Origin: Fibrobacterales bacterium
GTDB taxonomy: Bacteria > Fibrobacterota > Fibrobacteria > Fibrobacterales > JAOPTW01
Reading direction: 5' to 3'
Length of the DNA: 42,329 bases
NCBI GenBank assembly: GCA_051532055.1
Contig: JAOPTX010000079.1
Span: 1-42,329 of the forward strand
Part shown: in pieces, positions 14,705 through 41,806 of the stretch
How the letters are laid out: each line of letters starts with the position of its first letter
How positions within the stretch are numbered: position 1 is the first letter of the stretch
Position numbers and translations under genes: made by a program
The notes under the pieces: model-generated
The model's database searches: none
The model's input: the letters and a program-made list of their open reading frames with translations, nothing else
What the model was told of the DNA's origin: nothing

Positions 14705-15093
14705 CGCGTTGATTGAGACTTCTTTTTATTACAACTTCTACATTTTTTTCCCATTAATGTTCTATAAAATGATCTGATATATCCGGCAACTCCATACACT
14801 TTTTTCACTGCTTCATGTCGGTAAGAGGGAGGCAATATCCAGAAGTAGTCAAGAATTTGTGGGAAATGTCGACTCATTTCATTGATTGCTTCTTTGCCAT
14901 AGAAGCGGTTATCGAAAGCAATAAAAGTAAAATCATCGTCTTCGGAGTCTTCGGGAAGAACGATATACTCTATGAGCATTTCTGGATTTTTTTTCTTGAG
15001 TAATCCTATAAAACTGCTACATACGGGGCATTCAGCATCGTAGTACAGTTTAAAATCACTCGGTATCGATTGAGTAGTCAGGGTTTCTTTCAT
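14701..15093 (-). CDS. DCC1-like (DUF393) thiol-disulfide oxidoreductase family protein
   Basis: LYYDAECPVC (DxxCxxC) near the N-terminus; exact start uncertain. Confidence 0.75.
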   Translation of the reverse strand: MKETLTTQSIPSDFKLYYDAECPVCSSFIGLLKKKNPEMLIEYIVLPEDSEDDDFTFIAFDNRFYGKEAINEMSRHFPQILDYFWILPPSYRHEAVKKVYGVAGYIRSFYRTLMGKKCRSCNKKKSQSTR

Positions 15094-17533: not shown

Positions 17534-17702
17534 ATAATAAGGGATGTCCACTTATACTTTAAATATATATAAATATCTCTGTTATGCCTATCTCCTTTGA
17601 ATGAGAGCGTTGTAATTACTTGAAGGTATCGTTCAATTGTAAATGATCTGTTTTTTACAATTCTTTAGTATGTTATCAATAGGAATTTTTTATTTTAATG
17701 CT

Positions 17703-18350
17703 ATGACTCAAAACATAATAGTTAAACTCATAATCCTAGCTGCCTTATTGGTAGGGACTTCATTTGCTAAGCTCACCGAAAAAGATTCATTGAAATTAGT
17801 AGATGGGTGTAATGACTTTTTTAAGATGGTAAAGAAAAATAATCTTCCTGCTAAACCAGGCCTGTTAGAAAAAGTACTAACTGAGGAATCCATTGAGTGG
17901 TTTGAAGAAATTGTAGAGGCTGTTGAATCTGAAGATTCAGCTGCTTTGGCGATTCGACCTTTCTATGAATCAGTATCAATCATTGGACTACGCTACTATT
18001 ATAAAGAGGGGACTCTCGAAGACCTCGAATTGCATAATGTTTTTAAGTTCTATATGAGAATGGGATACGTTAATAAAATTTTGCGGATGAAGAGCTGGTC
18101 TAATTCATGGGTTGAGCAAGAGGAATATGGGTTTAGAGGGTTAAAAAAGGCCCCGAGAGTACCCATCCTCCATTTTAGACGTGAAAATGAAGTTTGGCGC
18201 CTAGAGCTGCCTCAAACCTTAGAAATCGTTTCACGAAGTGTACGGTCACTCGCCCAGAAAAAAGGGTGGACGGACCTCCAAGCAGCACTCGAAACCCTTG
18301 ATCTCATCATTCTAAAAGATGTCATTGATGAAAAATTGTTAGAGCCATAA
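17703..18350 (+). CDS. Secreted hypothetical protein
   Basis: Signal peptide MTQNIIVKLIILAALLVGTSFA from ATG 17703. Confidence 0.7.
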   Translation: MTQNIIVKLIILAALLVGTSFAKLTEKDSLKLVDGCNDFFKMVKKNNLPAKPGLLEKVLTEESIEWFEEIVEAVESEDSAALAIRPFYESVSIIGLRYYYKEGTLEDLELHNVFKFYMRMGYVNKILRMKSWSNSWVEQEEYGFRGLKKAPRVPILHFRRENEVWRLELPQTLEIVSRSVRSLAQKKGWTDLQAALETLDLIILKDVIDEKLLEP

Positions 18351-18626: not shown

Positions 18627-21600
18627 ATGAAGAGAGGATATCTCTATTCGTTTCTATTGGTAAGTATTTTCACTTTCATTTTAGTAGGATGTATCTCAGG
18701 TTTTGATGACTATGTTGATGTCAAAAAAGAGACCGATGCAATCGTTACTGAATTCGTGATCTTAGAAAACTCATCAGATCTCTGTAATGACAGTTTAGAT
18801 AACGACAACGATGCCCTCTTTGATTGTTATGACCCTGACTGTGGTATGATTGAGTATTGTAACCCTGAGTATAATTGTGCAGACACCCTCGATAATGACC
18901 TTGATGGATTCGTTGATTGCAGTGACCCCGACTGTATTAATACCGAAGAATGTAATAAGCCCGTAGAAAATACTTTTGAATTGTGCCATGATACCCAAGA
19001 TAATGACTCAGACCTCCTTATAGATTGTCTTGACCCTGAATGCTCTTATTTCTGTGCGGATTCATTGGAGAATACACTGGTTAAGTGTATGGATAATATT
19101 GATAACGACCAAGATAGTCTCGTAGATTGTAAGGACCCCGATTGTAGTAGCTTTCAGATGTGCCAACCTGTAGAAGAAAATACTCTTACACTCTGTAACG
19201 ATTTTATTGATAATGATGCGGATGCCCTTGTTGATTGTGACGATGACGGTTGTTCTCAAATGGCCTTTTGTCTAGAGCCTGGTGAAAATACGTATATCAC
19301 TTGTACCGATAGTGTTGATAATGATGGTGACACCTTTGTCGATTGTGATGACGATGGTTGTAAAGGTTTTGAGATATGTCTGCCTGATGGAGAAAACACC
19401 TACATAAAATGTAGTGATGGTATCGATAATGATGATGATTTACTTATTGACTGTGAAGACCCGAACTGTAGTGGGGTACCTGTTTGTATGGGGCTCGCTG
19501 AGAATACAGATGTAGAGTGTAAGGATGGTATTGATAATGATGGAGATGCTCTTATTGATTGTTCTGATGACGACTGTAGTAGTTTTGCGTGGTGTTTGCC
19601 CTCCGTAGAGAATACCGTTGATCTTTGCAAAGATACTTTTGATAATGATGGTGATGCTCATATTGATTGTGCAGATTCTGATTGTCAGCAAATGGAGCAT
19701 TGTTTACCACCGGGTGAAAATACTTATAAAACGTGTACTGATTTGATTGATAATGATAGTGACGGACTCATTGATTGTGCTGATGATGAGTGTAAATCTT
19801 TTGAAGCATGCTTGCCAGATGGAGAAAATACTTATGCTCGATGTACCGATACGATTGATAATGATGGTGACTTACTCATCGACTGTGATGACCCAAACTG
19901 TGGTGGGGTTCCTGTGTGTATGGGCCTTGTAGAGAATACAGCTGTTGAATGTAATGATAAAATAGACAATGATGGGGACAATCTCATTGATTGTTCCGAT
20001 GATGACTGTAGTAGCTTTTTATGGTGTCTACCATCTGTAGAAAATACTGTGGTTCTCTGTCAAGATGGTGTTGATAATGATGGTGACTCAAATGTTGATT
20101 GTGATGATTCAGATTGTACACAAATGAATCACTGTATTATTCCTGGTGAAAATACTTATGTAGCATGTAGTGATGGTATTGACAATGATACAGATGGACT
20201 CATTGACTGCCTAGATAATGATTGCTCAGGATTTGATAACTGTCTTCCCCCAGGTGAGAATACGTACATTCGTTGTTCTGATGGGATTGATAATGATAGT
20301 GATACTGACATTGACTGTGATGACAGTGACTGTAGTGGTGTTTCAATCTGTCTTAATGCTGCGGAAAACACTATAGCCGAATGTCAAGATGGTGTTGATA
20401 ATGATAGTGATACTTTTATTGATTGTGCTGATGATGAATGTAATCAGTTTCAATTTTGCCAGCCCGCAGTTGAAAATACTGATATACTTTGCTCTGATGG
20501 TCTCGATAATGACAATAATAATTTGACAGACTGTGATGATCCTGGCTGCAAATTTATTAGCTCTTGCTTAGTTTTCGAAAATACAAATGCTGTATGTGGA
20601 GATGGTATTGATAATGATAGTGATGGTGATATTGACTGTGCTGATAATGATTGTGATGGACAGCCTGTTTGTATGCCTGTAGGAGAGAATACCGCGACCA
20701 AATGTGTTGATGGTATAGATAATGACGGTGACTTAAAGATAGATTGTGATGATGAAGATTGTGCTGGAATACAGGCTTGTATTAAGGAAGAAAATACTAT
20801 TCCTCGATGTAGCGATGGATTAGATAATGATAATAACGGTGTGGCTGACTGTGATGATCCTAATTGCCAGAGGTTTTTTAGTATATGTCCTGCAGCTGTT
20901 GAGAATACACAATTATTGTGTCAAGATAACATTGATAATGACAGTAATGGAGACGTTGACTGTGCTGATGATGGATGTAAATTATTTGATTTTTGTCAGG
21001 AGAATACCTCAATTACTTGTGGAGATAATTTTGATAATGATTTGGATGGAGATATTGATTGTGATGACATTGAATGTGCTGCATTTTGTGAGTCGGATGA
21101 ATTAAGTTGTTTACCGCCAGGGTACCAGTTTAGAGATAGAATTGCTTTTCAGGTTAATATTTACGATTATCATGGACAAGAAAATGGAAATTGCAGTCGA
21201 GGTAACGTTCATGATAATTTTGGTTGTGAAGATAAGCCTGGAGGTGTTGTTACCGGGATGGTTCGAAATAAATTAAGCTCGAAAGGGTTGCCTCAATTAA
21301 AAGCAAATTTAGAAAATAATGCATATATTGAAGAGTGGTGGGATAGGGATGGACGTGGAACTTGGTATGCTGATAATGTCTACTTTCAACTCAACCCAAT
21401 CGATTCCAGTTATGTTTTTGAAGACAATACTTACTTTCCGTTAGATAATATAGTGGGCTATCGAAATTATGGTTTTGCAATGCACTTCCATAAACCTTTT
21501 ATGTATCTCGAAAAGGACGCAGACAAACAGACATTTACATTTCATGGTGATGATGATGTTTTTGTGTATGTTGATAATCAACTTATTCTTGATATAGGCG

Positions 21601-21773
21601 GTATACATCAAGCTGCTTCAGGTTCTTTTAACTTAAAGCATATAGCTGATAGTTTAGGTATTCAAAATGGAGAGGTTGTAAATTTTGACTTTTTTATCGC
21701 TGAGCGTCAGCCTGTTGGGTCAGAGGCTAAAATAACAATGAAGTTACCATGCTTGGTTGGTGGGCAATTTTAG
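18627..21773 (+). CDS. Lipoprotein with 22 Cys/Asp-rich repeats and C-terminal fibro-slime (PA14-like) domain
   Basis: Lipobox LVGC; repeats ENTxxxCxDxxDNDxDxxxDCxDxxC; YFPLD..NYGFAMH..FTFHGDDDVFVYVDNQLILDIGGIH..FFIAER (fibro-slime). Confidence 0.92.
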   Translation: MKRGYLYSFLLVSIFTFILVGCISGFDDYVDVKKETDAIVTEFVILENSSDLCNDSLDNDNDALFDCYDPDCGMIEYCNPEYNCADTLDNDLDGFVDCSDPDCINTEECNKPVENTFELCHDTQDNDSDLLIDCLDPECSYFCADSLENTLVKCMDNIDNDQDSLVDCKDPDCSSFQMCQPVEENTLTLCNDFIDNDADALVDCDDDGCSQMAFCLEPGENTYITCTDSVDNDGDTFVDCDDDGCKGFEICLPDGENTYIKCSDGIDNDDDLLIDCEDPNCSGVPVCMGLAENTDVECKDGIDNDGDALIDCSDDDCSSFAWCLPSVENTVDLCKDTFDNDGDAHIDCADSDCQQMEHCLPPGENTYKTCTDLIDNDSDGLIDCADDECKSFEACLPDGENTYARCTDTIDNDGDLLIDCDDPNCGGVPVCMGLVENTAVECNDKIDNDGDNLIDCSDDDCSSFLWCLPSVENTVVLCQDGVDNDGDSNVDCDDSDCTQMNHCIIPGENTYVACSDGIDNDTDGLIDCLDNDCSGFDNCLPPGENTYIRCSDGIDNDSDTDIDCDDSDCSGVSICLNAAENTIAECQDGVDNDSDTFIDCADDECNQFQFCQPAVENTDILCSDGLDNDNNNLTDCDDPGCKFISSCLVFENTNAVCGDGIDNDSDGDIDCADNDCDGQPVCMPVGENTATKCVDGIDNDGDLKIDCDDEDCAGIQACIKEENTIPRCSDGLDNDNNGVADCDDPNCQRFFSICPAAVENTQLLCQDNIDNDSNGDVDCADDGCKLFDFCQENTSITCGDNFDNDLDGDIDCDDIECAAFCESDELSCLPPGYQFRDRIAFQVNIYDYHGQENGNCSRGNVHDNFGCEDKPGGVVTGMVRNKLSSKGLPQLKANLENNAYIEEWWDRDGRGTWYADNVYFQLNPIDSSYVFEDNTYFPLDNIVGYRNYGFAMHFHKPFMYLEKDADKQTFTFHGDDDVFVYVDNQLILDIGGIHQAASGSFNLKHIADSLGIQNGEVVNFDFFIAERQPVGSEAKITMKLPCLVGGQF
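18765..21089 (+). repeat. Intragenic tandem repeat, ~108-bp unit x22, with 432-bp higher-order periodicity
   Basis: 22 C-x-D-x-x-DND units counted; DNA at 19461 and 19893 is closely similar (offset 432). Confidence 0.9.
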
Positions 21774-21801
21774 CAATTATTCAAATAATCTATTATAAAA
21801 T

Positions 21802-21832
21802 AAGCCTATCACAACCGTGGTAGGCTTTTCTT
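21802..21832 (+). terminator. Intrinsic terminator
   Basis: AAGCCTATCAC-AACC-GTGGTAGGCTT followed by TTCTT, 29 bp after the stop. Confidence 0.75.
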
Positions 21833-21941
21833 ATTCCCTATTTAGAATTTCAATAATATTTCTACCTTTTAACCTGATGAGTGCGTCTGGGTAATGTCTT
21901 TGTTTTTGTAAGCACTTACGTGGTTTTGTTTAGGGTCTAAA

Positions 21942-24900
21942 ATGAAAAAATTCATATTAATAGTTTGTCTATTGTCTCTCCTTGGGGCGTGTAATTTATT
22001 TGATAGTAGCGGTAGTAATACCAGGGACTATGTTATTTCGGTAGAGAGTAATAAAAGCCTCCCCATTGATAGTATTCAAGCGAAAGTGATTGTTGATAGT
22101 GATACGACTTATTATTCTTTTTCTAGAGAACAGCTCAATAGAACTCCGATAGACTCATTAAGTGAAAAAATATCTGCTACACTGCAGCTTACTGGCGATA
22201 AAAGTGATAGCACTGTTGTAGAATATCAGTGCTACAGTGATGGAGTTCCGATTATTGATAAGGCAACTCATTTTGAATTTGGGGGAGGGGAGCTTACCCA
22301 TAGTGGTGGACGAGACTCTTTACTTGTTGAGTATGTAACTGAGTACAATAGTAAGAAGCTCTCCTATGATATGATTCAGAATGATTCAGCTCAAATGGAA
22401 GCGGTATGGCTACAAAACAGAGAAACTTTAAAAGAGATAACTGTTCGGTACATGCTTGATAACGATTCCAGCACTCGTAATGTGTATGCTGCTTTTAAAA
22501 ATCACTCACTCCATACTTACCTTATGGATTCTACCGTTGCCGATACTCTAGGGCTATATAGTGCAGTTAGAGATTCATTAATTTCACGTGAAGTAAACGT
22601 CGATTCTGTTTTTGCACAGCTGTTGGCACCGGGTGGTGATGTTGCTCAACTATTGGCCGAAATTCCTAATCCGATAGAAAAAATATTACCTGATGAGCCC
22701 ATTGCCCGATTTCGTTTTTCTGGTACCATAACCTCACACGCAAATGAAGTAGCCTTGGTTTATCTTCATATATGGGGAGATAGTATCATTGATACAATAG
22801 TGCGACCTATGCTGTATGACGCAGCATTGGGTGAGTACAATGGGTATCTCGATCTCTTTGAGCTTGGCGAAAGATATACTGTGTCGGCTCATGTGTATGA
22901 TGCGGATAGTCTGTTGACGGGCTTTATAAGTAAAGTTTTTGATATCAGTACTTTTGATGTTACGCTGGCGGGTATTGATGGGTGGAATGCGAAGCCGTTT
23001 GTGAGTATTGATTCGTTACCCAGTTATTCTATAGGTGATGTAGTAGAGGTTAGCTTTCACGCTAAAGATACATTAGGGAGTCAATCAAATTTGAGCATAT
23101 GGGTCAGTCATGGTACATTGGATTATACGTTAGTTCAGGATTTTAAGCATATGATTTTTTTGCCTGCAATAGATACTGTTGGTTATTCTATAAAAGCAAA
23201 AGCTATCGACTCAGATGGTAACATATCTTATACAACAAGAAATATCAATATTTTAAAAGATGTACCCGTAGTTGAATTAGGTGAAAAATTTATTGTTGGT
23301 AAACTGAACATTGTTGAATATAAGGTAAGTATCGAACAACAATTTGGAGCTATTGTCAATCAATATTGGGACTTTAATGGTGATGGAGTAATTGATGATA
23401 CATTGTCAGGAAATGGTATCTCAAATTATCATTTCACTAAATCGGGACTCTATACCAGCTGGTTATTTGTAAAAGATGATGATGGGAATATTGGGAAAGA
23501 CTCAGTGACTGTTACCGTTATAAATCAGCCACCACTAATTTCCTCTATGCAAATAGATACAGTTGTATTATTAGGCTCATCAATGAGTGCGACTTGCAAT
23601 GTATCAGATGAGGATGGCGTGATTACACACTACGAGTGGGATTTTGATGGGAATGGCATATTTGAATACCAACAAGCTACTAATACTTCTATAGAATACT
23701 TGTTTAAGCACCCTGGAACTCATACAGTATTTTTGAAAATAACGGATGATGAGGGGCTTATTGCTATTGATTCAGTAGAAGTAAAAGTAAATTCTGCTCC
23801 GTATATTAATCAAGGCTTGACTGATACAGTTACTGTAATGGAAGATGAGGAGGTACAATTTGGGTTGTCAGCTTCTGACTTCAATGGTGATGTAATCAAC
23901 TGGTCAATATTGGACTCAACTGATAATGGGCTTATACTATTAAACAATATTATCCAAGATTCACTTATAATTTTATATAGGCCCAGTGAAAATTTCGAAG
24001 GATTAGACTCATTAAGTGTGATTGCTATAGATGTTTATGGGGCAACTGATACTATCAATCTATATGTTTCTGTTAAGGCTATTAATGATTTTCCAACTAT
24101 AAATGGAATCCCTGAAATATCTGGAAATGTAGAGTTTGAGCATATTTTAACTGCCATTTCAAATTGTTCTGATATAGAAGATTCAAACACACAACTTCAA
24201 TACGTTTGGTATGTTGATGATGATAAAAATAGTTTTGATGGTGACTCTATAGGTGTTGGAGCGGATATTATTCTGCCAGCTATAAGTGTAGAAAAGTACC
24301 TGTATTTTAAGGTTAGCTGTATCGATAGCGAAAATGGAATAGATTCTACTTACTCATCTTATTCCGGTGAGGTTACATCTAAAAAATTGATCATTGAAAT
24401 AGATACGGATAGTAGCGATGCTGGGCTGGACGTACGTATTCCATTAAATGGAAATGTCGATGTAGTTATTGATTGGGGTGATGGAAATAATGAGGTTGGC
24501 ATATCAGCTAGCCTTTATTCCCATACATACAGCTCTGAAGGCAAGTACATGGTTACAATTTCAGGTAATGTTGAACATTTGGGCTGTAATGAGCTCAGTG
24601 ATTATTTTAATAATTTATGTGTTTCAGATAATTTAATCAAAGTTTATAGCTTTGGTCAAATAGGCTTGAATAGCTTGGGATGGGCCTTTGTAGGATCGAA
24701 CATTACCACCGTTCCCAAAATTTTACCTGAAACAGTTACTAATTTGTCAGGTGCATTTAAGAACGCATCTAAATTCAATGAATCAATCATGTGGGATACA
24801 AAAAATGTGACTGATATTAGTTGGACTTTTAGTGGAGCGTGGATTTTTAATTCAAATATTAATCACTGGGATGTTCGTAATGTAACAAACATGAAGGGTG

Positions 24901-25469
24901 CTTTTAGTGGGGCTAGGAATTTTAATCAAGACTTAAATGATTGGGAAACATTAAAAGTAGTAAATATGGGATGGATGTTTTCTTCTGCAATTAGCTTTAA
25001 TGGAGACATTTCTAAATGGAATGTTGGTGAAGTAACTGAAATGTTATATATGTTTGAAAATGCGACATCTTTTAATAGAGATTTAAACAATTGGGATGTC
25101 CTTAATGTTCTAGATATGGCGGCTATGTTTTCATATGCGAGTTCATTTGATGGGGATTTAAGTAAATGGCAAGTTAAAAACGTTATCAATATGAATAGTA
25201 TGTTTCGGGATGCGACGTTATTTTCCGGAGATATTATTGAATGGGACGTTTCAAATATTTCTAAAAATTTAGTTTATTTTTTGTATGGAACAAGTATTTC
25301 ACTTGAAACGTACAGTGAGATTTTAATTGAATGGGCAAAGCTACCTTTACAAAGCAATATTACTTTAGACATGGGGGAGCTTAATTATCACAGCAGCGCA
25401 ATTGAGGCAAGGAAAAAAATTACCGAAGATTTTGGTTGGGATATTGACGATGGGGGGCTTGAACCTTGA
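21942..25469 (+). CDS. Large surface lipoprotein: PKD domains, Ig/cadherin-like domain, BspA/DUF285 repeats
   Basis: Lipobox LGAC; YWDFNGDG and YEWDFDGNG (PKD); EDE..YRPSENFEGLDSL..INDFP (Big_9-like); IDWGDG; ~6-7 25-aa W.V..V.NM..MF..A..FN.D repeats at ~24720-25270. Confidence 0.9.
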   Translation: MKKFILIVCLLSLLGACNLFDSSGSNTRDYVISVESNKSLPIDSIQAKVIVDSDTTYYSFSREQLNRTPIDSLSEKISATLQLTGDKSDSTVVEYQCYSDGVPIIDKATHFEFGGGELTHSGGRDSLLVEYVTEYNSKKLSYDMIQNDSAQMEAVWLQNRETLKEITVRYMLDNDSSTRNVYAAFKNHSLHTYLMDSTVADTLGLYSAVRDSLISREVNVDSVFAQLLAPGGDVAQLLAEIPNPIEKILPDEPIARFRFSGTITSHANEVALVYLHIWGDSIIDTIVRPMLYDAALGEYNGYLDLFELGERYTVSAHVYDADSLLTGFISKVFDISTFDVTLAGIDGWNAKPFVSIDSLPSYSIGDVVEVSFHAKDTLGSQSNLSIWVSHGTLDYTLVQDFKHMIFLPAIDTVGYSIKAKAIDSDGNISYTTRNINILKDVPVVELGEKFIVGKLNIVEYKVSIEQQFGAIVNQYWDFNGDGVIDDTLSGNGISNYHFTKSGLYTSWLFVKDDDGNIGKDSVTVTVINQPPLISSMQIDTVVLLGSSMSATCNVSDEDGVITHYEWDFDGNGIFEYQQATNTSIEYLFKHPGTHTVFLKITDDEGLIAIDSVEVKVNSAPYINQGLTDTVTVMEDEEVQFGLSASDFNGDVINWSILDSTDNGLILLNNIIQDSLIILYRPSENFEGLDSLSVIAIDVYGATDTINLYVSVKAINDFPTINGIPEISGNVEFEHILTAISNCSDIEDSNTQLQYVWYVDDDKNSFDGDSIGVGADIILPAISVEKYLYFKVSCIDSENGIDSTYSSYSGEVTSKKLIIEIDTDSSDAGLDVRIPLNGNVDVVIDWGDGNNEVGISASLYSHTYSSEGKYMVTISGNVEHLGCNELSDYFNNLCVSDNLIKVYSFGQIGLNSLGWAFVGSNITTVPKILPETVTNLSGAFKNASKFNESIMWDTKNVTDISWTFSGAWIFNSNINHWDVRNVTNMKGAFSGARNFNQDLNDWETLKVVNMGWMFSSAISFNGDISKWNVGEVTEMLYMFENATSFNRDLNNWDVLNVLDMAAMFSYASSFDGDLSKWQVKNVINMNSMFRDATLFSGDIIEWDVSNISKNLVYFLYGTSISLETYSEILIEWAKLPLQSNITLDMGELNYHSSAIEARKKITEDFGWDIDDGGLEP

Positions 25470-25712: not shown

Positions 25713-26564
25713 CTATGAAGCATCGGATTGTTCGTCTTGAGGGCCTCCTTCATTATGTTGCGCATCGATGATTTTTTTCTTTTTTGCTTTAAGAGAATTA
25801 TACTGTTTGCGTTTGTATTCGCTCAAAAAAGTATCGAGTGTTTTTTTGTCGTGTTTAAAAACAAAGCGTGCCCATCGGCGGATCTCTTCAACAGTTTCAC
25901 TTAAATGCGTTATAGCTTGATCACAGATAACGCGGTATTTTGAATAGCGATCGAGTTGGGCGGCAGTACGGATGCCATTAAGCTCTACTGAAAGTATTTT
26001 TGCTTTAGCTAGGTTGGTGATGTCATATCGAAGTTCCTGCAATTCTTCAGTCATGTTCTCACCCATACGAGAAAGGTCCATGAGGTCTTGAATCATGTCA
26101 CTTATGGTAAATCCTTTTGAGATGTTTTTCAAAATTGCCATTTTTTCAGATTTATTATGTGATGCAAACTTAAGGTAGTCATAAAGAGTATCGCGAAGCT
26201 CTTTGGCTTCAGGTTTTTTGAGACTCCATGCATTGCCCTCTTCTATAGAAAGTTTCAGGTTACTATTTGCGATTCGTGCGGCGCCCAGACGTCTGATTAG
26301 TTGTATCTGTAATGGCGCATCAAAGCCGCGAGTCAAGAGTGAGTCCATGGTATGATCCACAACTTTAAACAGGCTTTCACCTTCTGAGATATAGCGGTCG
26401 GCTATCATGCCAGAACTATAGATCTTTTCAATAGCTTGAATAGCTTCAAGTTCTTCATCATAAAACCGTTCATAATCTTTTATAGGCATTTTTTCATCAA
26501 TTGAAACTAATTCTACTTCAGTTGTTTGTTTTGCTTCTGCGATTGTATTTTTGTTTTTAGACAT
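25713..26564 (-). CDS. Uncharacterised alpha-helical protein
   Basis: ATG at 26564 preceded by GAGGA (the longer start at 26624 lacks an RBS). Helical, charged sequence; DMIQDLMDLSRMG and DQAITHLSETVEEIRRWARFVF segments. Confidence 0.8.
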   Translation of the reverse strand: MSKNKNTIAEAKQTTEVELVSIDEKMPIKDYERFYDEELEAIQAIEKIYSSGMIADRYISEGESLFKVVDHTMDSLLTRGFDAPLQIQLIRRLGAARIANSNLKLSIEEGNAWSLKKPEAKELRDTLYDYLKFASHNKSEKMAILKNISKGFTISDMIQDLMDLSRMGENMTEELQELRYDITNLAKAKILSVELNGIRTAAQLDRYSKYRVICDQAITHLSETVEEIRRWARFVFKHDKKTLDTFLSEYKRKQYNSLKAKKKKIIDAQHNEGGPQDEQSDAS

Positions 26565-26817
26565 ACTGTCCTCAGTAGTGGTACCAACATCATTAGTAGG
26601 TTCTTCTCTATGGGTACCGTGCATAGAGGAGTGTTAGTTGTTAATCAGTGCAAGTAATAGTTCTCTCATCTGATACATCTATTAGACGACAGTGCAAGAA
26701 CCATTGTTACCAGAAGATTAAAAGAGTGTGAATGTTTTATGAAACTTTACAAAAGTTGCTGGTTATTTAAAAAAAAACAATACTTTGTAAACCCAAAAAG
26801 ATCTAATGGGTAGTCGT

Positions 26818-27343: not shown

Positions 27344-28891
27344 TTAAAACAGTATTCGCGCACCAGCAGAAAGAGCACCAAATTCATTCTTGTCCTCAAG
27401 AATTTCTACACTCCACGATACAAAAATCTGTGAAAACTCAGACTGAATCCCTCCTGTAGCAGAAACAGATATATTCTGATTGTCGCCATCTTCAATATTG
27501 TCATATGAGATAGTTCCTTCACCATAAAATTTATCAGTTAAGCCAGCAATTGCTGTTGCTCTAAATAATTCGTGCTTGGGGTCTGCTTGGTTCATTGACA
27601 ATGAATTGTAGTTGTCAGCGATAGGAAGTTTAATCCAAATATCTGCTTTAAACTCACCTTTAGATGGTTTTTTACCAAAATGATATTCAAGTACCGGAGC
27701 TTGGGCTGGTCCGTAGTCTCTGAGAGGTACTGAACAATACGACGACTTTAATGCGATGGTATTTTTTGCATCTAAATTACCTCTCCCACCGTTTCTAAAA
27801 AAGATAGCGCCAACATTAAGTTGGTCAGAAATACCGTATGCTCCATCGAGTTCTGCATTTATATCATATGCAGATGACCCATCGTCCATATAGGGAGCGA
27901 TATACAATGCAGCATTACCGAGTATCTGCCCTTTGCCTAACGTTTGATCATAATAGTTGTCCCAGTTTCCATTGACGTTGTCAAAGGTAAGTGCTCTGGT
28001 GCCATGGAGGTAGCCCCCTGAAAGAGTTATTAACGAGCCTGTTTTTTTGATTGTAGAGTTGAAATCGATTTTTGAAGCTGATTTGTCAGAGCTAGAATAA
28101 GAGAGCGACCCAAATAATTTATCAGTCCTCCCTTTTATACGGAGAGATGTTGTTTTAGAATACTTGCTTTTATCGTTACCATTGTAAATGTATTGTTTTG
28201 TATGGTCTAAGTTAAAAGTCGCTCCTATTGTTACGTTGTTAAGAAGCCCAAGATCACCTGAATAATCAAAATTCTCTAAATCAAAGGAATCCCACCATTG
28301 GTGTACAACAGATACATCATGTTGGTACTGCATTTTATTGAGCATGGGACCATTAAAAAAAGCAAGCTGATACTCTTCAGGTGTAATACGTATCTCACCA
28401 TTATTGGTGAGTAGCTTCGAGCCATATGTGTTAATAGTTACAGCAGGATCTTCTGTTCCATATTTAGAATCTGATTCTTGTGGACTAAAGATCTTGGTGG
28501 CCCATAAATTAGTTGGGACCATAGACAAATAGAGCATGTGACCTGGAGACACCATATATTGTCCCTGAACGTAAAGAAGGCGGGCTATTACTATATCTGA
28601 TTCGCTATCATCACTACTTAACCATCCGATAGTTGGTGAAATATACATAGAATATACTTGTTCTTTACCCTTGTAAAAACGTGGGCTTACAGTGAATATC
28701 GAAACCTTATCAACATAATCAATTGAACCGTCTGCATCTATAATGCCTCCCTCGGTTAAACGGCCAAGGGTATAGGCGGGTTTAAAAACTGAGTTATAAG
28801 TATTTTGGCTCGTTGCCTCTTCAGACTCCTGCGCAAATAGGGAAGGGACTAAGAAAATGAATAAAAATAAATAAGAATACTTGTTGGTCAT
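27344..28891 (-). CDS. Probable outer-membrane beta-barrel protein
   Basis: Signal peptide (..PSLFA), amphipathic strands, C-terminal ..AGARILF. Confidence 0.7.
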   Translation of the reverse strand: MTNKYSYLFLFIFLVPSLFAQESEEATSQNTYNSVFKPAYTLGRLTEGGIIDADGSIDYVDKVSIFTVSPRFYKGKEQVYSMYISPTIGWLSSDDSESDIVIARLLYVQGQYMVSPGHMLYLSMVPTNLWATKIFSPQESDSKYGTEDPAVTINTYGSKLLTNNGEIRITPEEYQLAFFNGPMLNKMQYQHDVSVVHQWWDSFDLENFDYSGDLGLLNNVTIGATFNLDHTKQYIYNGNDKSKYSKTTSLRIKGRTDKLFGSLSYSSSDKSASKIDFNSTIKKTGSLITLSGGYLHGTRALTFDNVNGNWDNYYDQTLGKGQILGNAALYIAPYMDDGSSAYDINAELDGAYGISDQLNVGAIFFRNGGRGNLDAKNTIALKSSYCSVPLRDYGPAQAPVLEYHFGKKPSKGEFKADIWIKLPIADNYNSLSMNQADPKHELFRATAIAGLTDKFYGEGTISYDNIEDGDNQNISVSATGGIQSEFSQIFVSWSVEILEDKNEFGALSAGARILF

Positions 28892-33191: not shown

Positions 33192-33926
33192 ATGCGCACT
33201 ATTGTATTAGTATCATTTCTATTCTTAATTATTGGATGTAATCAGGCTCGTATTAAACAGCCGATCTTACTTACAAATTCACATACCTTCTTGAGTGATT
33301 CTACTCAAACATCACTTGAATTTTCTTTGTCAGAATCTCCTACCTATAGTTTTACTAATGATTATTTCACTACATCTCATTCGGAATTACTCGAAGCTCC
33401 GGGAGGCAAGCTTTCAATATATCATAAGTTCTCATCGGGAATTGGTATTTTTGGGGGTTTTACTGGTGGGTTATACTGTGGTGTAAATAAAATATTTTCG
33501 TTTCCAAAAAAATCAGCAATAGTTATTGAAACAGACCTGCAATTGGAATCTCAAATTGAAAGTGGGAATGAAAATGAATATTCATTATATAGTGAAAACC
33601 GGAAGATTAGACTCGAGAGTAGTATGTTGAGCCCTGGTGTTTCTGCAGCTTTTTCAAAAGACATTGAAAGTATCAATAAATGGTGGGGACTCTCACTAAA
33701 GGTTGGAGGGCAACTTAGAATGGTTTCAATGACCCATGAAAATACTACTGATAATTTAAAAAAGAAGAGTCATTTTTTCATAGGTGGGCCATCTGCCACT
33801 GTGGCTATAAGACTATTTAAATATCTAGGTCTTCATGCGGCAACATCATTAGGGGTTGTATCTACTGATGATTTAAGTGATGCACAGGAGTTTCAGCTTG
33901 GTATCAAGGGCTATTTTGGGAGATAA
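33192..33926 (+). CDS. Hypothetical lipoprotein, beta-strand rich
   Basis: Lipobox IIGC; beta-barrel-like C-terminus. Confidence 0.7.
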   Translation: MRTIVLVSFLFLIIGCNQARIKQPILLTNSHTFLSDSTQTSLEFSLSESPTYSFTNDYFTTSHSELLEAPGGKLSIYHKFSSGIGIFGGFTGGLYCGVNKIFSFPKKSAIVIETDLQLESQIESGNENEYSLYSENRKIRLESSMLSPGVSAAFSKDIESINKWWGLSLKVGGQLRMVSMTHENTTDNLKKKSHFFIGGPSATVAIRLFKYLGLHAATSLGVVSTDDLSDAQEFQLGIKGYFGR

Positions 33927-35188: not shown

Positions 35189-36514
35189 ATGGCAACTACC
35201 CGCGCCTCAAATAAAGAAATTTTCGGTTGGTCGATGTTCGACTTCGCCAACTCTTCTTACACCACTGTAATAATAACTGTAGTGTTTAGCATTATCTTCC
35301 CCAAAATTATAGTAGGGGATGGCCCTGATTACCGAGAAGGTAATCTTCTCTGGAGTATCGCAATTGCTACAAGTTATTTAATTGTACTCCTCATGGCGCC
35401 CGTTCTCGGTGCTATTACAGACTACACTGCCACCAAAAAGAAGTTTCTCTTTGGGAGCTGCATTGTAACTGTGATCTTTACCGCCCTTTTGTACTTCATT
35501 GAACCTGGTATGATTTGGCTTTGTATGTTCTTTCTCATTATCTCCAATATTGGCTTCTCCTTTAGTGAAGCCTTTGTGTCGAGTTTTTTACCATCACTCG
35601 GCCCACCAGAGACACTCGGTAAAATATCAGGATTTGCGTGGGGACTTGGGTATATTGGTGGTCTTATCTCTACAGCAATAATCATTTTTGGCCTTGGACC
35701 AACAGAGATAGATAACTTTGCAAATCTCAAATTTGTTGGACCAATTGTAGCAGTATTCTTTCTGTTAGCAGCAATTCCAACCTTTCTTTTAGTCAAAGAA
35801 CCGAAGAGCGAATTGAAACTTAGAGAGGGTGAATCAGTTATAAAAATGGGCTTTTCTCGAATTGGCTCAACACTAAAAGAGGTTCGTGATTTTAAAGATA
35901 TGGTAATTCTACTATCATCCTTTCTCTTTTCTTATGCTGGTCTATCTATTGTCATTTCGTTTGCCTTTATATATGGCGATCAAGTGATCAAGTGGGATAG
36001 TGGAACGCAGGTTCTCATGTTCATTATTACACAATTTGCAGCCGCAGGTGGAGCGGTAGTATTTGGAATTATTCAAGATAAAATTGGGGCACGTATTTCG
36101 TATACTTTAACCCTTGTGCTCTGGGTGATAACTATTACAATGATAGCTGGCGCGGACCAGGTAACCTATTTTCTCAATGGGATTTTCTCAACAGATTGGG
36201 AAACACAAAAAGTGTTTCTGTTTATTGGCTCATTAGCAGGCCTTGGCCTTGGCGCTACTCAGTCTGCGTGTCGGGCAATGGTGGGTCTCTTTGCACCAGA
36301 ATCTAAAGCGGGTGAGTTTTATGGACTGTGGTCAATGGTGGGTAAGGCTTCTGCTATTATTGGATTGATTGCTCTTGGCTTGCTTCAGGCTGCATTCGGA
36401 CTTAAGTATGCGATTCTTATCTGTTCACTCTTTTTTGTGATTGCAATTGTGATAACATTGTTTATCAATGAGGACCGGGGGCGAGCTACTGCTCAATCTC
36501 ACAATGGTGAATAA
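35189..36514 (+). CDS. MFS transporter, UMF1/ATG22-like
   Basis: WSMFDFANSSYTTVIIT, APVLGAITD, GKISGFAWGLGYIGG, AGEFYGLW; ~12 TM helices; GGAG RBS before ATG 35189. Confidence 0.9.
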   Translation: MATTRASNKEIFGWSMFDFANSSYTTVIITVVFSIIFPKIIVGDGPDYREGNLLWSIAIATSYLIVLLMAPVLGAITDYTATKKKFLFGSCIVTVIFTALLYFIEPGMIWLCMFFLIISNIGFSFSEAFVSSFLPSLGPPETLGKISGFAWGLGYIGGLISTAIIIFGLGPTEIDNFANLKFVGPIVAVFFLLAAIPTFLLVKEPKSELKLREGESVIKMGFSRIGSTLKEVRDFKDMVILLSSFLFSYAGLSIVISFAFIYGDQVIKWDSGTQVLMFIITQFAAAGGAVVFGIIQDKIGARISYTLTLVLWVITITMIAGADQVTYFLNGIFSTDWETQKVFLFIGSLAGLGLGATQSACRAMVGLFAPESKAGEFYGLWSMVGKASAIIGLIALGLLQAAFGLKYAILICSLFFVIAIVITLFINEDRGRATAQSHNGE

Positions 36515-36593
36515 CAACCTAACTTCAACTATTACCTTAAGTTGTGCTGGTTGTATCGCCTATTTCCTAGGGTTGATTCAAAGAATTTATCGG

Positions 36594-36630
36594 TAACTCC
36601 CTTCAATTTAATTAATTATTGGGAGTTTTT
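36594..36630 (+). terminator. Probable terminator
   Basis: AACTCCC...GGGAGTT followed by TTT, with an AT-rich inner stem/loop. Confidence 0.5.
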
Positions 36631-36792
36631 CATACAGACTTATAAACTCTAACTTTTAAAATACGCACTATTTAGTTGCACCAACTCTATATATTTGGCA
36701 AAATAGAGGTGATTGTGACTTTTAAAGTAGTTGACTGCATAGCCAAACTTGAGCTTATGGAGTGCACTTTAATGAAGTAAATGGGGTAGCGC

Positions 36793-38619
36793 GTGCATAG
36801 AGCTTTTCGAAATAGAACTATACCTCTTGGTGTCGTGATTTGTTTTATTGTTCTTTTGAGCCTTTTTCAAGGATATAGTGGGCAACTCGATAGCCAAGAG
36901 AGTGAAATATCTGAACAGTATGAGCGGATTATTAAGAATGAAATGCTCAAATACTTTAAAGAAGGAACCTTTATTGTTGATGTAAAGGTGGCCTTAAAAG
37001 AACGACTCGTTCCAAAGAAGTATAAAAGGTTACGCACAGAAGATGAAATAGATAAACTTCCAGGACTTCCAGTACTTCCCGCTGAACTGAGAGCAGAGGT
37101 AAAAAGTAACAACAGTGACAGTGTTAAAGTATCGGATTATGATGCCATTTTCGAGGTTAAATATGCTGATGTAACTATCCTTGTTGATTCCTCATACACC
37201 CTAGATGAGTTTGGATTTATTGTAGACCTCGTGATGATGGTTGCAAATTTAGAAGAGATGCGTGGAGACCGAGTTAATATAAGCCAAAAGAAATTCCCTG
37301 ATGAATTATTACGTTCAGGGCATTTACAAGAAAATATCGATCAAGATGCTTTTTTACCTGCTATTGAAGAACCACTTACTGAGAGAGAACGTATTGTTAA
37401 TAGTGTGATAAAGCTACTCCCTATTATTATAGTGAGCGTCCTACTTTTTCTCTTTTTGGTTATTACACTGGGTATGTTACTTAAATATTATCGTTCTAAA
37501 AATGAATTTGAGAATACTGAAAAATTGACTCAAATGATACAACAAATTAGTGATCAATCTAAAGAGGCTATCATAGGAAATGAGGACGATACAATGGAAG
37601 GCGCAGGCTCTGAGGAACGGGTAATAGAGGATCTTGCCTATAAAACCAATCGAATCTCTATACTCAATTCATTTATTGGTAGACCAGAAAAATCCACTGA
37701 AGTACTCAAGGGTTGGATCGAGAAGAGTGCTGAAGAGGGTTTTAATAAAGCCGCTCTTTTAGTTATGATTATTGATGAGAAAGTACTGGATGTTATTAGA
37801 CCATTTATGGTTCAAGCTACTGTTGCAGGAATTGAACTTGAGCTTAAGGTACTCGAAAAGCCCGATGAAGAAAGTGCTCTTTTTGTGATGGCAGAATTTA
37901 AAGAAGATTACAATAAGCGTATTGCCGATGACCATGAAGATAAGGATAACTATGATATATTTAATTTTCTCAAACAGTTGACCAACGATCAGGTCCTTCA
38001 TGTACTAAAAGGTGAAGAGGAGGGGATTATTGGTATTGCACTTGCGCAACTTACTCCTAAGGTTGCTGGGGAGGTATTACAATCTTATGATGGAGAGAAG
38101 CGGTCTAAGTTATTGATTAGTATGGGTAATATCAGTAATATTCCTGTATCCCTGTATAAAGAAGTAGCTGAGCAGTTATCTACAAAAGCACTTGAAGTAA
38201 GTAATATGCGCTCTGTTGCGGCTGATGGTATCGAGAGTATTATTGAGGTTATAGCAAATTTAAGTGTCGATGGCCAATCACAATATATCCACTCTATCTC
38301 TGAAATGGATTTAGAGCTTGCACAGAAAATTAGACGATTCTATGTTACCTTCGAAGATCTTTCTTCGCTCCCTGATGATATTTTATCCAAGGTTCTTCAA
38401 GAGGTTGACCGTGATGCACTCAGTGTAGCGCTTTTACATACTCAAGAAGATTTTATTAATCATATTTTACAACTCTTCCCTGAAAGGATGCAGGCAATGA
38501 TTCAATCGGGAGTCGAGACAAATAGTGATGCTACCCCAGAAACTATTGATATTTCGCGAAAAGAGATATTGCAAAGAGTTCGGAAAGAACTCAAGCAGTT
38601 AGGAGGGCTTCCACAATGA
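36793..38619 (+). CDS. FliF(C-terminal ring domain)-TM-FliG fusion protein
   Basis: Signal/TM; VTILVD...DLVMMVANL..RGDRVNI (FliF RBM3); TM; RPEKSTEVLKGW (FliF C-tail); KAALLV (FliG-N); IFNFLKQL..IGIALAQL (FliG-M); LAQKIRRFYVTFEDL..ERMQAMI (FliG-C). Confidence 0.85.
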   Translation: MHRAFRNRTIPLGVVICFIVLLSLFQGYSGQLDSQESEISEQYERIIKNEMLKYFKEGTFIVDVKVALKERLVPKKYKRLRTEDEIDKLPGLPVLPAELRAEVKSNNSDSVKVSDYDAIFEVKYADVTILVDSSYTLDEFGFIVDLVMMVANLEEMRGDRVNISQKKFPDELLRSGHLQENIDQDAFLPAIEEPLTERERIVNSVIKLLPIIIVSVLLFLFLVITLGMLLKYYRSKNEFENTEKLTQMIQQISDQSKEAIIGNEDDTMEGAGSEERVIEDLAYKTNRISILNSFIGRPEKSTEVLKGWIEKSAEEGFNKAALLVMIIDEKVLDVIRPFMVQATVAGIELELKVLEKPDEESALFVMAEFKEDYNKRIADDHEDKDNYDIFNFLKQLTNDQVLHVLKGEEEGIIGIALAQLTPKVAGEVLQSYDGEKRSKLLISMGNISNIPVSLYKEVAEQLSTKALEVSNMRSVAADGIESIIEVIANLSVDGQSQYIHSISEMDLELAQKIRRFYVTFEDLSSLPDDILSKVLQEVDRDALSVALLHTQEDFINHILQLFPERMQAMIQSGVETNSDATPETIDISRKEILQRVRKELKQLGGLPQ

Positions 38620-39722
38620 AATGCCTATTGATACTTCTAATGGTTACGGTTTTGGTCAGTGCTAAAAATAAGGTTACTTACCTGAGCCAAGATACAAAAA
38701 GCGAAAAAGAGATAGATGCTGAATACGAGTCCGAGAGTAATACAGGCATGAGTCAGATCTATCATATTATTGATCAGCTAAAAACGTCAGTAGGGGATAT
38801 CCCTCCGTATATTGAACGGATTGCAATTTATCAATTAAAGGTTAAACGCGATGAATTCAACAGTGGGATGGCGCGCTTTATTCGTGGTCACATTGAAGAG
38901 GTTTTTATGCGGAGCGCACGCAAGAAAATGGTAACCGCCCCAGAGCTGAGCAGAGTCCGAATTCTATCAACTGATTCATCTTTTAATATGTCCAGTTCAC
39001 TACCGACAACTGACGAACTCTGGGATTTGGGTGAGAAGCTTAGAATAGACGGTTTCTTAGAGGGCTCTATTACTCGAACTGAAGAGGGTGATGTGATGCT
39101 GAGTCTCAAAATATTTAAACATAAAACCAATGAACAAGTATGGTCGGTTAATCTCGTGGCAGGGCCTAATAAAGTTGAAGACAACTATCTAGATTATGAA
39201 GTTAATGTGAAAGCAAGTTTCAGTTATTGGCCTATAGAAAAATTTACTCAAGACGCTCGGTCATTTACTGAGGAATTAACTCTTTACGGGTACACTTTTG
39301 ACTTTATGATCAGTGAAGCGACGACGGTTGATCGCTTTTTCTACATGGCACTGTATGCAGGGTTTGGCATGTACAACCCAATGTCGGCTAAAGAAAATGA
39401 TGAAACGTTTAATAAGTTATCAAAAAAATTCCCTATCGATCTCGGATTTGAAATGACCGGTATTATCGTTCCAAAACAAAATAAAGATGAGGGCTATTGG
39501 CTTGGTCTAACAACCGGTGTGAAAACTCTCATTTTTGATAATCTATGGTCGGTTAATGCTGGCTTTAAAAGTCGGCTTACTCCTCACTTTGGAATTGGTG
39601 CTGGCGCAAATATCTGGCCGATTAACACTACCTTTGAGCCAAGTTTACTCGACGGTACAAGTAACTATGAACTTAAAATGGAGATGGTGTCGTATGAAGG
39701 TTATTTACACTACTATTTTTAA
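38616..39722 (+). CDS. Secreted protein: CsgG/FlgO/TolB-N-like domain + probable C-terminal OM beta-barrel
   Basis: Signal peptide; RIAIYQL..LGEKLRIDGFLEGSI..LSLKIF..TNEQVWS; amphipathic strands ending YLHYYF; ATGA overlap with the upstream gene. Confidence 0.7.
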   Translation: MKCLLILLMVTVLVSAKNKVTYLSQDTKSEKEIDAEYESESNTGMSQIYHIIDQLKTSVGDIPPYIERIAIYQLKVKRDEFNSGMARFIRGHIEEVFMRSARKKMVTAPELSRVRILSTDSSFNMSSSLPTTDELWDLGEKLRIDGFLEGSITRTEEGDVMLSLKIFKHKTNEQVWSVNLVAGPNKVEDNYLDYEVNVKASFSYWPIEKFTQDARSFTEELTLYGYTFDFMISEATTVDRFFYMALYAGFGMYNPMSAKENDETFNKLSKKFPIDLGFEMTGIIVPKQNKDEGYWLGLTTGVKTLIFDNLWSVNAGFKSRLTPHFGIGAGANIWPINTTFEPSLLDGTSNYELKMEMVSYEGYLHYYF

Positions 39723-40347
39723 CGGGTTCATAGTGGGCTCACTCGTATGCCTTTCGGCATGCTCATCATCATCAAAGGGCACTTCGGGGCGTGGTCAGCC
39801 ACAGCCCAGTGAAGAAAAAGAAAAGAGTGAACAACTTACTATCCGCTATTCGAATCAGTCTACCTCTATCAAAATGCAAGTAGACCCATTTGATGAAGAC
39901 CTCTATATCGATATGAGAGGTGGGTTGCATTCAACACAATCTATATCGGCAAATACCAATAGTATTGATACGGTGTATCAGATATCAAAACAACCCGAGC
40001 AGTCTCAGGGTCAACCTCAAGGAGGGCAGAGACCCATACCAAATTCAGAAGTTCAGAAAAATATGCAAAATATGCAGCCACAGAAAATGAATAACAGTGT
40101 GTTGGCCCATATCCGACGAGCACAAGATTATTTTTATAAAAAGCAGTATGAAGACGCTGTTGAGGCAGTGAATCAATCTTTGCAAATTCAAAAAACTGCT
40201 GAAGGCTATGCACTTATAGGGAGTATATATTACATGATGGATGAAATTCCATGGGCCATAACGCAATGGAGAAATGCCTTGGAGCTTAACCCGGATATGA
40301 TTGAGATTCAAAAAATGCTTGAAAAAATTAAGAGGGACCAAGAATGA
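39694..40347 (+). CDS. TPR-containing lipoprotein
   Basis: Start MKVIYTT at 39694; lipobox LSAC; Q/P-rich linker; AQDYFYKKQYEDA..GSIYYMM..WRNALELNP TPRs. Confidence 0.85.
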   Translation: MKVIYTTIFNGFIVGSLVCLSACSSSSKGTSGRGQPQPSEEKEKSEQLTIRYSNQSTSIKMQVDPFDEDLYIDMRGGLHSTQSISANTNSIDTVYQISKQPEQSQGQPQGGQRPIPNSEVQKNMQNMQPQKMNNSVLAHIRRAQDYFYKKQYEDAVEAVNQSLQIQKTAEGYALIGSIYYMMDEIPWAITQWRNALELNPDMIEIQKMLEKIKRDQE

Positions 40348-41134: not shown

Positions 41135-41806
41135 ATGTCCCTTCAAAAGCATTCAGGTAATAGGCCTCCCGATATTGATGAACCCGATGAAGGGTGGTTG
41201 AGTACCTATGCTGACATGATAACATTGCTCATGGCATTCTTCTTGGTATTGATTTCAATATCAAAAGTAGACGTTGCTCTTTTTGAACAACTCAAACAGG
41301 GGCTGCAAAAAGAAATCGCAAAAAAAGAGAAGGTCGAAACTCCTCTTGCAAAAATAAAACGGGATCTCGACTCCTTATTAATACAGGAACGTTCTCAAAA
41401 AAAGGTTTCTATCGATCTTGGTCGAAAAGGAATTACCATGCAATTTGCAAGTTCAGCTTTTTATGGACCAGGACGTGCGGATATTGGGCGAGAAGCAAAG
41501 CGTATTATTGATAAAGTTGTAGGGGCGATCAACAACATCACTTACTACCCTTTTCAGATAGATATTGAAGGACATACTGATAATGTTCCGATCAATACGT
41601 TACGATTCCCCTCAAACTGGGAGCTTTCAGTAGCACGAGCAACCACTATTGTCAAATACTGCCTCTCTAAAGGTGTGCCCTCTGATAGGCTCAAGGCTGC
41701 AGGATATGCTGATACTAAACCAATTGTACCTAACCAAACAACAACGGGAAAGAATATTGGTAAAAATCAGGCTATGAATCGGCGTATCGTGATTCGGATT
41801 CATTAG
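41135..41806 (+). CDS. motB: MotB/PomB family stator subunit with OmpA-like peptidoglycan-binding domain
   Basis: WLSTYADMITLLMAFF (ion-binding Asp); IEGHTDNVPI..FPSNWELSVARA..GYADTKP..NRRIVI. Confidence 0.93.
   Translation: MSLQKHSGNRPPDIDEPDEGWLSTYADMITLLMAFFLVLISISKVDVALFEQLKQGLQKEIAKKEKVETPLAKIKRDLDSLLIQERSQKKVSIDLGRKGITMQFASSAFYGPGRADIGREAKRIIDKVVGAINNITYYPFQIDIEGHTDNVPINTLRFPSNWELSVARATTIVKYCLSKGVPSDRLKAAGYADTKPIVPNQTTTGKNIGKNQAMNRRIVIRIH

Follow-up and report, generated by a model that had tools for sequence, protein, structure and literature searches.

A natural FliF-FliG fusion is the first gene of a conserved five-gene block that includes stator genes

FliF and FliG have been joined in one chain in the laboratory. 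FliF-FliG fusion mutants of Salmonella were reportedly described by Francis in 1992. An engineered Vibrio FliFG chain is available as PDB 8z4d (PMC11481574), and laboratory FliF-FliG fusions are reported to form rings. In the flagellar MS-ring the hole that takes up the export gate is made by RBM2 (PMC8270960). Non-flagellar 5:2 ion motors have been classed together as 'GIT', and flagellar-type stators are treated as motility-specific, in PMC12505986. In the portion of the literature that is openly searchable, FliG and stators of the flagellar type belong to flagella. Neither a natural RBM3-FliG fusion nor the five-gene operon reported here was found to be described in the literature searched, with most subscription journals lying outside the search; the supplementary tables of the stator survey could contain members of the operon MotA group.

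The gene considered here was found in a stretch of 42,329 nucleotides from a marine Fibrobacterales-like bacterium; the whole stretch is called the window. The features of the gene and of its four followers are listed in Table 1.

Table 1. Positions of the fusion gene, its predicted parts and the four genes behind it within the window.
Feature	Position	Strand	Basis
Predicted FliF(RBM3-TM2-tail)::FliG fusion, 608 aa	36793..38619	+	profile, structure model, Pfam
Signal-peptide-like segment replacing FliF TM1-RBM1-RBM2, presumably cleaved	36793..36882	+	hydropathy, consensus
Predicted RBM3 with beta-collar-type insertion, residues 29-169; LPGLP loop 37057, RGD 37261	36877..37299	+	structure match
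Predicted single inner-membrane helix, FliF TM2 equivalent, residues 199-234	37387..37494	+	hydropathy, model
FliF C-terminal tail motif P298...W308, RPEKSTEVLKGW	37681..37716	+	profile, HH-align
FliG N, M and C domains	37735..38616	+	Pfam, profile, model
Gene 2, predicted 368-aa outer-membrane protein	38616..39722	+	structure model
Gene 3, 217-aa TPR lipoprotein	39694..40347	+	lipobox, conservation
Gene 4, MotA of PomA/MotP type, 262 aa	40344..41132	+	HMM scores
Gene 5, MotB, 223 aa: TM Asp27, MotB_plug model, OmpA-type peptidoglycan-binding domain	41135..41806	+	HMMs

A sequence-only reading had placed the start of the fusion at 36793 on the forward strand, where it indeed lies; the end that it gave, 37770, takes in the first 326 codons only of a frame that closes at 38619. 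From its N-terminus on, the encoded protein consists of a signal peptide, the RBM3/collar of FliF, a single TM helix, the tail of FliF and FliG N-M-C. Hydropathy analysis revealed a weak N-terminal segment at residues 4-22, which was read as the signal peptide, and one strong TM segment at 199-234. All motifs named in the sequence-only reading were recovered at their positions (LPGLP 37057, VTILVD 37171, RGDRV 37261, RPEKSTEVLKGW 37681-37716 and KAALLV 37747), together with the 10-residue gap between the tail and the FliG-N motif (W308 to K319).

Pfam recognised FliG_M (E 2e-11), FliG_C (3e-19) and, weakly, FliG_N (0.002) in the fusion. The Pfam FliF model gave no match, and the FliF part is visible by profile and structure only. 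A family profile was built from 125 homologues, gathered from 6 proteins and 150 listed representatives with fragments and some longer forms omitted. Searched against solved structures, this profile matched FliG chains with E values of 1e-34 to 1e-48 and FliF chains with 3e-8 to 7e-5, among the latter 8z5s (3e-8) and 6scn (5e-8). It was collinear with the engineered Vibrio FliFG 8z4d through the first RBM3 helix and strand, the RGD strand, the TM helix, the tail and FliG. HH-align, using 32 flagellar FliF sequences, placed fusion residues 34-313 on FliF 249-512 (probability 98.1, E 1.2e-13). In an AlphaFold2 model of the fusion (mean pLDDT 86, pTM 0.42) residues 29-169 matched FliF RBM3 (8z5v) with Z 15.0 and an rmsd of 1.5 A over 96 residues; the FliG-C part matched FliG-C with Z 14.1 and 1.9 A (Foldseek was also used). 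The postulated RBM3 fold of the periplasmic part and the homology to both FliF and FliG were thereby substantiated. Among the 125 rows of the profile, the RBM3 residues P90, G91 and D159 are conserved in 123, 122 and 124, and the tail residues P298 and W308 in 98 and 94. Where the RGD motif was found (110 of 125 rows) it lies at residue 124-231.

Since RBM3 begins at residue 29-34, right after the signal segment, TM1, RBM1 and RBM2 cannot be present, as had been claimed for the N-terminal ring domains of FliF. An HMM for the FliF N-terminal domains matched 0 of 204 sequences; this result is weak alone, as the RBM3 HMM likewise matched just 2 of 204, and HMMs made from the 32 flagellar FliF sequences are too blunt for RBM3. 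Judged by model and sequence, the fusion is FliF in RBM3/collar, TM2 and tail, but not a full FliF. Its FliG-N is short by about 27 residues. The fixed 1:1 ratio of the FliF and FliG parts, to which attention had been drawn, is not special, because the flagellar motor likewise pairs both one to one.

A pattern search of the genome collection gave 138 matches, and 64 of them encode a relative of the fusion. By label, 20 of these loci belong to Fibrobacterota, 39 to Balneolales, 1 to Rhodothermia and 2 to Bacteroidota; 1 is labelled bacterium, and 1 is a short contig labelled Bifidobacteriales. This 3.8-kb contig carries a fusion at 36% identity and probably reflects a binning or label error. 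The fused form, about 570-730 aa in length, also occurs in most of the 150 listed representatives. Look-alike clusters in a protein atlas, which serve as leads only, include Bdellovibrionota, Bacteroidota, Pseudomonadota and Elusimicrobiota among their commonest phyla. No full-length fusion was detected in plasmid records, where 0 of 24 matches covered 80%. Cultured carriers are Gracilimonas tropica DSM 19535 and Balneola sp. EhC07.

In the window the fusion gene comes first in a row of five genes whose ends overlap or nearly touch. The order fusion-barrel-TPR-motA-motB is complete in 57 of the 64 loci, and in the remaining 7 the row breaks off at a distance of 0-369 bases from where the sequence itself ends. 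No gene family in the flanks is common to more than 23 of the 64 loci. The fusion thus heads a conserved block with its own MotA/MotB stator and two outer-membrane partners. Gene 2 was left unnamed by Pfam, NCBIfam and sequence searches of solved structures and was identified through its model alone (pLDDT 80). This model comprises an LpoB/PelC/FlgT-like periplasmic domain (residues 45-184) and an 8-stranded barrel (192-368) with a C-terminal Phe. The best structure matches were LpoB (Z 11.9), PelC (8.1) and an LPHT-ring chain (7.6), and OprF for the barrel (Z 14.5). The lipobox Cys23 of the gene 3 product is present in 46 of 46 rows; the protein further has a beta segment, predicted at about 48-77 and conserved, and a C-terminal TPR. 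When RBM3 (30-175) and the TPR domain (126-217) were modelled as a complex, the score was 0.11, which is evidence neither way. The gene 4 product scored 143 bits with MotP, 135 with PomA and 19 with TolQ models, and the best matches of the gene 5 product were MotD/MotS models.

The window holds further genes outside the block. Two large secreted-looking proteins of 1048 aa (weak PA14, PHD-finger-like) and 1175 aa (PKD, Ig, DUF285) are encoded at 18627-25469. Three linked genes on the minus strand (9117-14097) encode a TPR protein, a beta-propeller protein and a Cache-HAMP-GGDEF diguanylate cyclase. Open reading frames of 235-515 aa at 15056-16051, 17643-18350, 25713-26624, 27344-28891 and 33192-33926 had no Pfam match.

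In 26 of the 33 carrier genomes from outside Fibrobacterota, FliG_C also matches a second frame, which is about 620 aa long; Gracilimonas tropica, for example, has two copies of the fusion. The regions around this second copy were analysed in 15 of the 26 (L143-L152 and L154-L158; L153 is an unrelated Fibrobacterota match). The second-type fusion is preceded by a protein of roughly 1000 aa in 15 of 15 regions, one of them cut by a contig end. DUF4402-like genes, of which the operon has four encoding secreted proteins, a chaperone-like gene, a short TPR gene, motA and motB occur in 14 of 15, and gene 2 was not found in any of the 15. At its C-terminal end the 1000-aa protein carries a TPR with homology to the lipoprotein of the window (E 1e-16). 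The second-type MotB carries SPOR domains and measures 506-636 aa in 13 of 14 cases. In a Pseudoalteromonas record homologues of the chaperone-like and 1000-aa genes adjoin, one of them annotated as a pilus chaperone (tblastn E 3e-6). The 1000-aa protein matched no Pfam usher model and no solved structure, and the label usher rests on gene context and weak matches; a usher-like gene of this kind is missing from the genome of the window. The load of the Balneolaceae paralogue is likely a chaperone-usher-type fibre machine. The second-type operon would be a version of the window's motor fitted with a different outer-membrane load, and the TPR the likely adaptor.

In order to compare functional residues, 63 of the 64 first-type fusions, i.e. 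those of the type in the window (one fragment was dropped), 15 second-type fusions and 31 flagellar FliG proteins were set against E. coli FliG. The EHPQ(R) motif, which we take to be the FliM-binding motif of FliG, has EHPQ complete in 31 of 31 flagellar proteins and in 0 of 78 fusions (EEEG at 408-411 here), and R160 is also lost. The stator-contact residue R281 is kept in 61 of 63 first-type fusions, the other 2 being truncated, and in 15 of 15 of the second type; it corresponds to R565 here. At the position of D289, Glu is found in 41 of 63 and 14 of 15 fusions, respectively, and Gly573 in the present one. D288 is not acidic in the fusion family, and K264 is not kept. On the stator side, the MotB Asp is invariant (57/57 first-type and 14/14 second-type operons), and so are the equivalents of MotA P173, T209 and P222 (57/57 and 14/14). 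Three threonines that characterise the TM segments of PomA are kept in MotA (T166 57/57, T193 47/57, T194 57/57), but at the site of E. coli V43 the MotB of the window has Val; the coupling ion would be Na+ or H+. At the position of MotA R90, 42 of 57 operons have a basic residue (Lys94 here) compared to Arg in 29 of 29 flagellar proteins, and at that of E98 about 22 of 57 have an acidic one (Lys102 here) compared to 29 of 29. MotA R90/E98 are reported to pair with FliG R281/D288/D289 (10.1101/2024.07.22.604496). To judge by these residues, the ion path of the stator is intact, the FliM switch site has been lost, and rotor and stator alike show a partly remodelled torque interface. Since the charge pairs between rotor and stator are eroded, torque transfer may be weak or rearranged, and the rewriting on both rotor and stator counts against a high-torque motor.

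We propose that the block is an unswitched ion-driven rotor which works on the outer membrane, a view whose chances we put at about even; the rotation and the output are what we infer. The observed ground for it consists of the domain anatomy, the five-gene linkage, the ion-path residues, the loss of the FliM motif and the retention in carriers in which no flagellar markers were found. The five genes would form a small ion-driven envelope motor separate from the flagellum. Going by its fold, the fusion would assemble into a ring via RBM3 and the beta-collar in the periplasm and via FliG in the cytoplasm. MotA5B2 stators anchored to the peptidoglycan would conduct Na+ or H+ and push FliG-C. Having no FliM/FliN switch, the ring would turn or ratchet one way only; having no export gate or rod, it would pass the force out through the collar, probably through the conserved LPGLP loop. 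The TPR lipoprotein and the barrel protein would be the outer-membrane partners receiving this force. The output would be mechanical work at the outer membrane, namely the moving, gating or assembling of a surface or barrel component.

The eroded torque residues also suit a ring that barely turns. Here, load on the outer-membrane partners would alter stator engagement or ion flux and the block would be a mechanosensor, or it would be an energised tie between inner membrane, wall and outer membrane resembling Tol-Pal. The OmpA-type wall anchor, the SPOR domains added in the paralogue's MotB and the retention of the block in a 1.6-Mb genome and in a non-motile species point in the same direction. 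Opposed to this, the three FliG domains and R281 have been retained under strong selection, no signalling gene is conserved in the block, and its distribution is patchy, gene 2 having been found in 11 of 151 Fibrobacterota genomes in a phylum-wide search. We regard a sensor or tether as unlikely, but as a serious contender.

Another possibility is a gated conduit: the gate-less RBM3/collar ring would be a periplasmic channel like SpoIIIAG, which MotAB acting on FliG opens, or through which it drives cargo towards the outer-membrane partner. RBM2, which lines the central hole, is missing from the fusion, and the S-ring with its collar resembles the SpoIIIAG ring (PMC8270960). Furthermore, the domain of gene 2 is PelC/LpoB-like, and PelC forms a ring in a polysaccharide exporter, according to structure entry titles. 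One TM helix per subunit, however, would be expected to enclose lipid and not a pore, an 8-stranded barrel is generally too narrow for macromolecules, and conserved genes for a cargo or a pathway are missing next to the first-type operon. A conduit is rather improbable, yet it is, with the sensor or tether, one of the two main rivals.

In the present genome an ordinary fliF-fliG pair lies on contig C7 and motAB inside a flagellar cluster on C23; FlhA is also present, and flagellin domains were matched 12 times. Eight of the 12 stand in tandem on one contig (G000:C36:152-9598). A further MotB-like OmpA-domain gene, behind a gene for a 603-aa membrane protein (G000:C15:197493-199973), forms an ion-motor-like pair unlinked to flagellar genes. 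The genomes behind 50 of the 64 loci were searched for three flagellar markers. FlhA was present in 29, the FliF N-terminal domain in 31 and flagellin in 33 of them. No match to FlhA, FliF-N or flagellin was obtained for 17 of the 50, whose completeness is unreported. These 17 are all among the 33 non-Fibrobacterota genomes and include 7 single-record chromosomes, and related genomes among them are not independent draws. Their FliG_C matches were frames of 607-649 aa only. Two frames of 216-220 aa with weak FliG_C matches in Fibrobacterota (G045:C12:81073-81294 and G051:C68:668-916) are neither the fusion nor an ordinary FliG.

Within Fibrobacterota, a 1.6-Mb genome on one contig (G117, 98% complete) has all five genes in order (L201:7494-12577, 32% GC at the locus) and gave no flagellin, FliM/N or FliP match. 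FliM/N and FliP were unmatched in four Balneolaceae tested, too. With RBM2 missing and these proteins unmatched in the 5 carrier genomes tested, the earlier suggestion that the ring houses no export gate fits. Table 1 of PMC5167729 gives the carrier Gracilimonas tropica as non-motile, and the same paper states that there are no reports of gliding in Balneolaeota. The block has no export gate, rod, hook, filament or C-ring switch genes within it, and flagellar genes adjoin it in none of the 64 loci, as far as ORF clustering shows. The block is a conserved rotor-stator unit independent of the flagellum.

These data bear directly on the idea that the block is an accessory or alternative flagellar part, such as a spare stator, a brake or an assembly seed. 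Flagellins are present in this genome and in 17 of 17 Fibrobacterota genomes of the 50-genome set, and MotA scores best with PomA/MotP models, as such a part might. The intact block in marker-less carriers and the ordinary flagellar clusters that house the genome's own fliF-fliG and motAB largely refute it, and we consider it very unlikely. Even less probable is a Zorya-like anti-phage sensor on a MotAB-type motor. MotB does match ZorB models (E 8e-18), but far more weakly than flagellar MotB-type models (E 1e-47), and the other four proteins of the block had no PADLOC match. ZorA together with ZorC/D/E effectors was not found, ZorB-type matches being confined to MotB; no nuclease or helicase partner is conserved, and the neighbours are housekeeping genes.

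A public DNA contig covers positions 36736-39731 without differences or gaps at a depth of 467, so that the junction of FliF and FliG, for which read support had been called for, is unbroken. This run may be the source of the window itself; the independent evidence is hence the fused form in other genomes. In a comparison with L011, its closest relative, the fusion has a dN/dS of 0.031, and the values of the five genes span 0.018-0.067; with dS at 1-2 they are rough. That the fusion is an assembly artefact, as the sole DNA run over the window being possibly its source might allow, or a decaying remnant of a lost flagellum is refuted by the homologues in 64 loci and in most of the 150 listed representatives, by the dN/dS of 0.03 and by a complete flagellum in the same genome, and can be dismissed for practical purposes. 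RNA contigs are fragments only, with a depth of 2-4, and show no expression. The MFS (Atg22-like) transporter gene just upstream of the operon (35284-36785) has the deepest RNA cover in the stretch compared, up to 14.5; contig depth cannot rank genes. Promoter and terminator scans remained at chance level (20 vs 16.9 and 3 vs 3.9).

The origin of the stator was addressed by MotA trees, all of which are quick searches. The operon MotAs of both types fall on one side of a branch with 99% support, opposite 23 other MotA/PomA-type rows from several phyla. Their position is in the PomA/MotP part of the tree, apart from the flagellar MotA of their hosts; a tree with narrower sampling gave this too, but had long branches. 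When the tree was rooted with 5 ExbB/TolQ-type proteins of this genome, the outgroup was split and branches were long. A position of the operon stators as sister to all flagellar stators is neither shown nor rejected by the trees (AU p 0.57). One Fibrobacteria group (L178-L182 and L184-L186) has a flagellar-type MotA lineage unlike the flagellar MotA of this genome. That FliG-M and the FliF tail have been kept, though in degenerate form, is in our judgement slightly easier to reconcile with loss from a motor that had a switch than with ancestry. A real rotary machine of a non-flagellar kind that arose from the flagellum is more probable than pre-flagellar descent. That the block is a working one-chain rotor with stator, fitted with interchangeable outer-membrane loads such as the small barrel protein here and a pilus usher in Balneolaceae, and descended from a rotor-stator module older than type III export, appears distinctly improbable.

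Overall, the block looks like an undescribed motor with a non-flagellar job. If this is true, it represents a new kind of envelope machine, consisting of rotor and stator with no export gate, switch, rod or filament, each part of which has a known homologue. It would make the smallest working rotor-stator pair, and torque generation apart from type III export, accessible to testing. The small number of genes and the cultured carriers render it experimentally tractable.

Known chaperone-usher systems need no energy input. The Balneolaceae paralogue, and only this, shares with chaperone-usher pili the four DUF4402-like secreted proteins, the chaperone-like protein and the 1000-aa partner, but its operon has TPR, fusion and MotAB directly after them. 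A stand-alone RBM3-like domain with a beta-collar is shared with SpoIIIAG of Bacillus sporulation, a likeness by description only (PMC8270960). In contrast to SpoIIIAG, the RBM3 of the fusion continues into TM helix, FliF tail and FliG, and its profile and fold matches are to FliF. SpoIIIAG itself was not among the fold matches listed, which excludes nothing. With the 5:2 ion motors ExbBD-TonB, TolQR-TolA, AglRQS, GldLM and ZorAB the block would have in common that ion force is turned into work at the outer membrane or surface; it differs in its flagellar-type stator and in having a FliG ring as partner instead of a tether of the TonB/TolA type. No GldM match was obtained in this genome, which is 94% complete. 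The laboratory FliF-FliG fusions have the same order at the junction, and the family profile is collinear with 8z4d; they contain full-length FliF and are part of a flagellum, whereas the fusion of the block is natural, truncated and has its own stator.

The most extensive likeness is to parts of the flagellar motor core. Shared features are RBM3/collar, TM2, the FliF tail beside FliG-N, FliG M and C with R281, and the PomA/MotP-type stator with its Asp, plug model and OmpA domain. On the other hand, the rotor of the block is one chain, in which a signal peptide takes the place of TM1-RBM1-RBM2 and FliG-N is about 27 residues shorter. The block has no FliM motif, export gate, rod, hook, filament or FliM/N, and it possesses two dedicated outer-membrane partners. 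The block is therefore neither a flagellum nor a carrier of a full FliF, while it resembles the motor core in parts.
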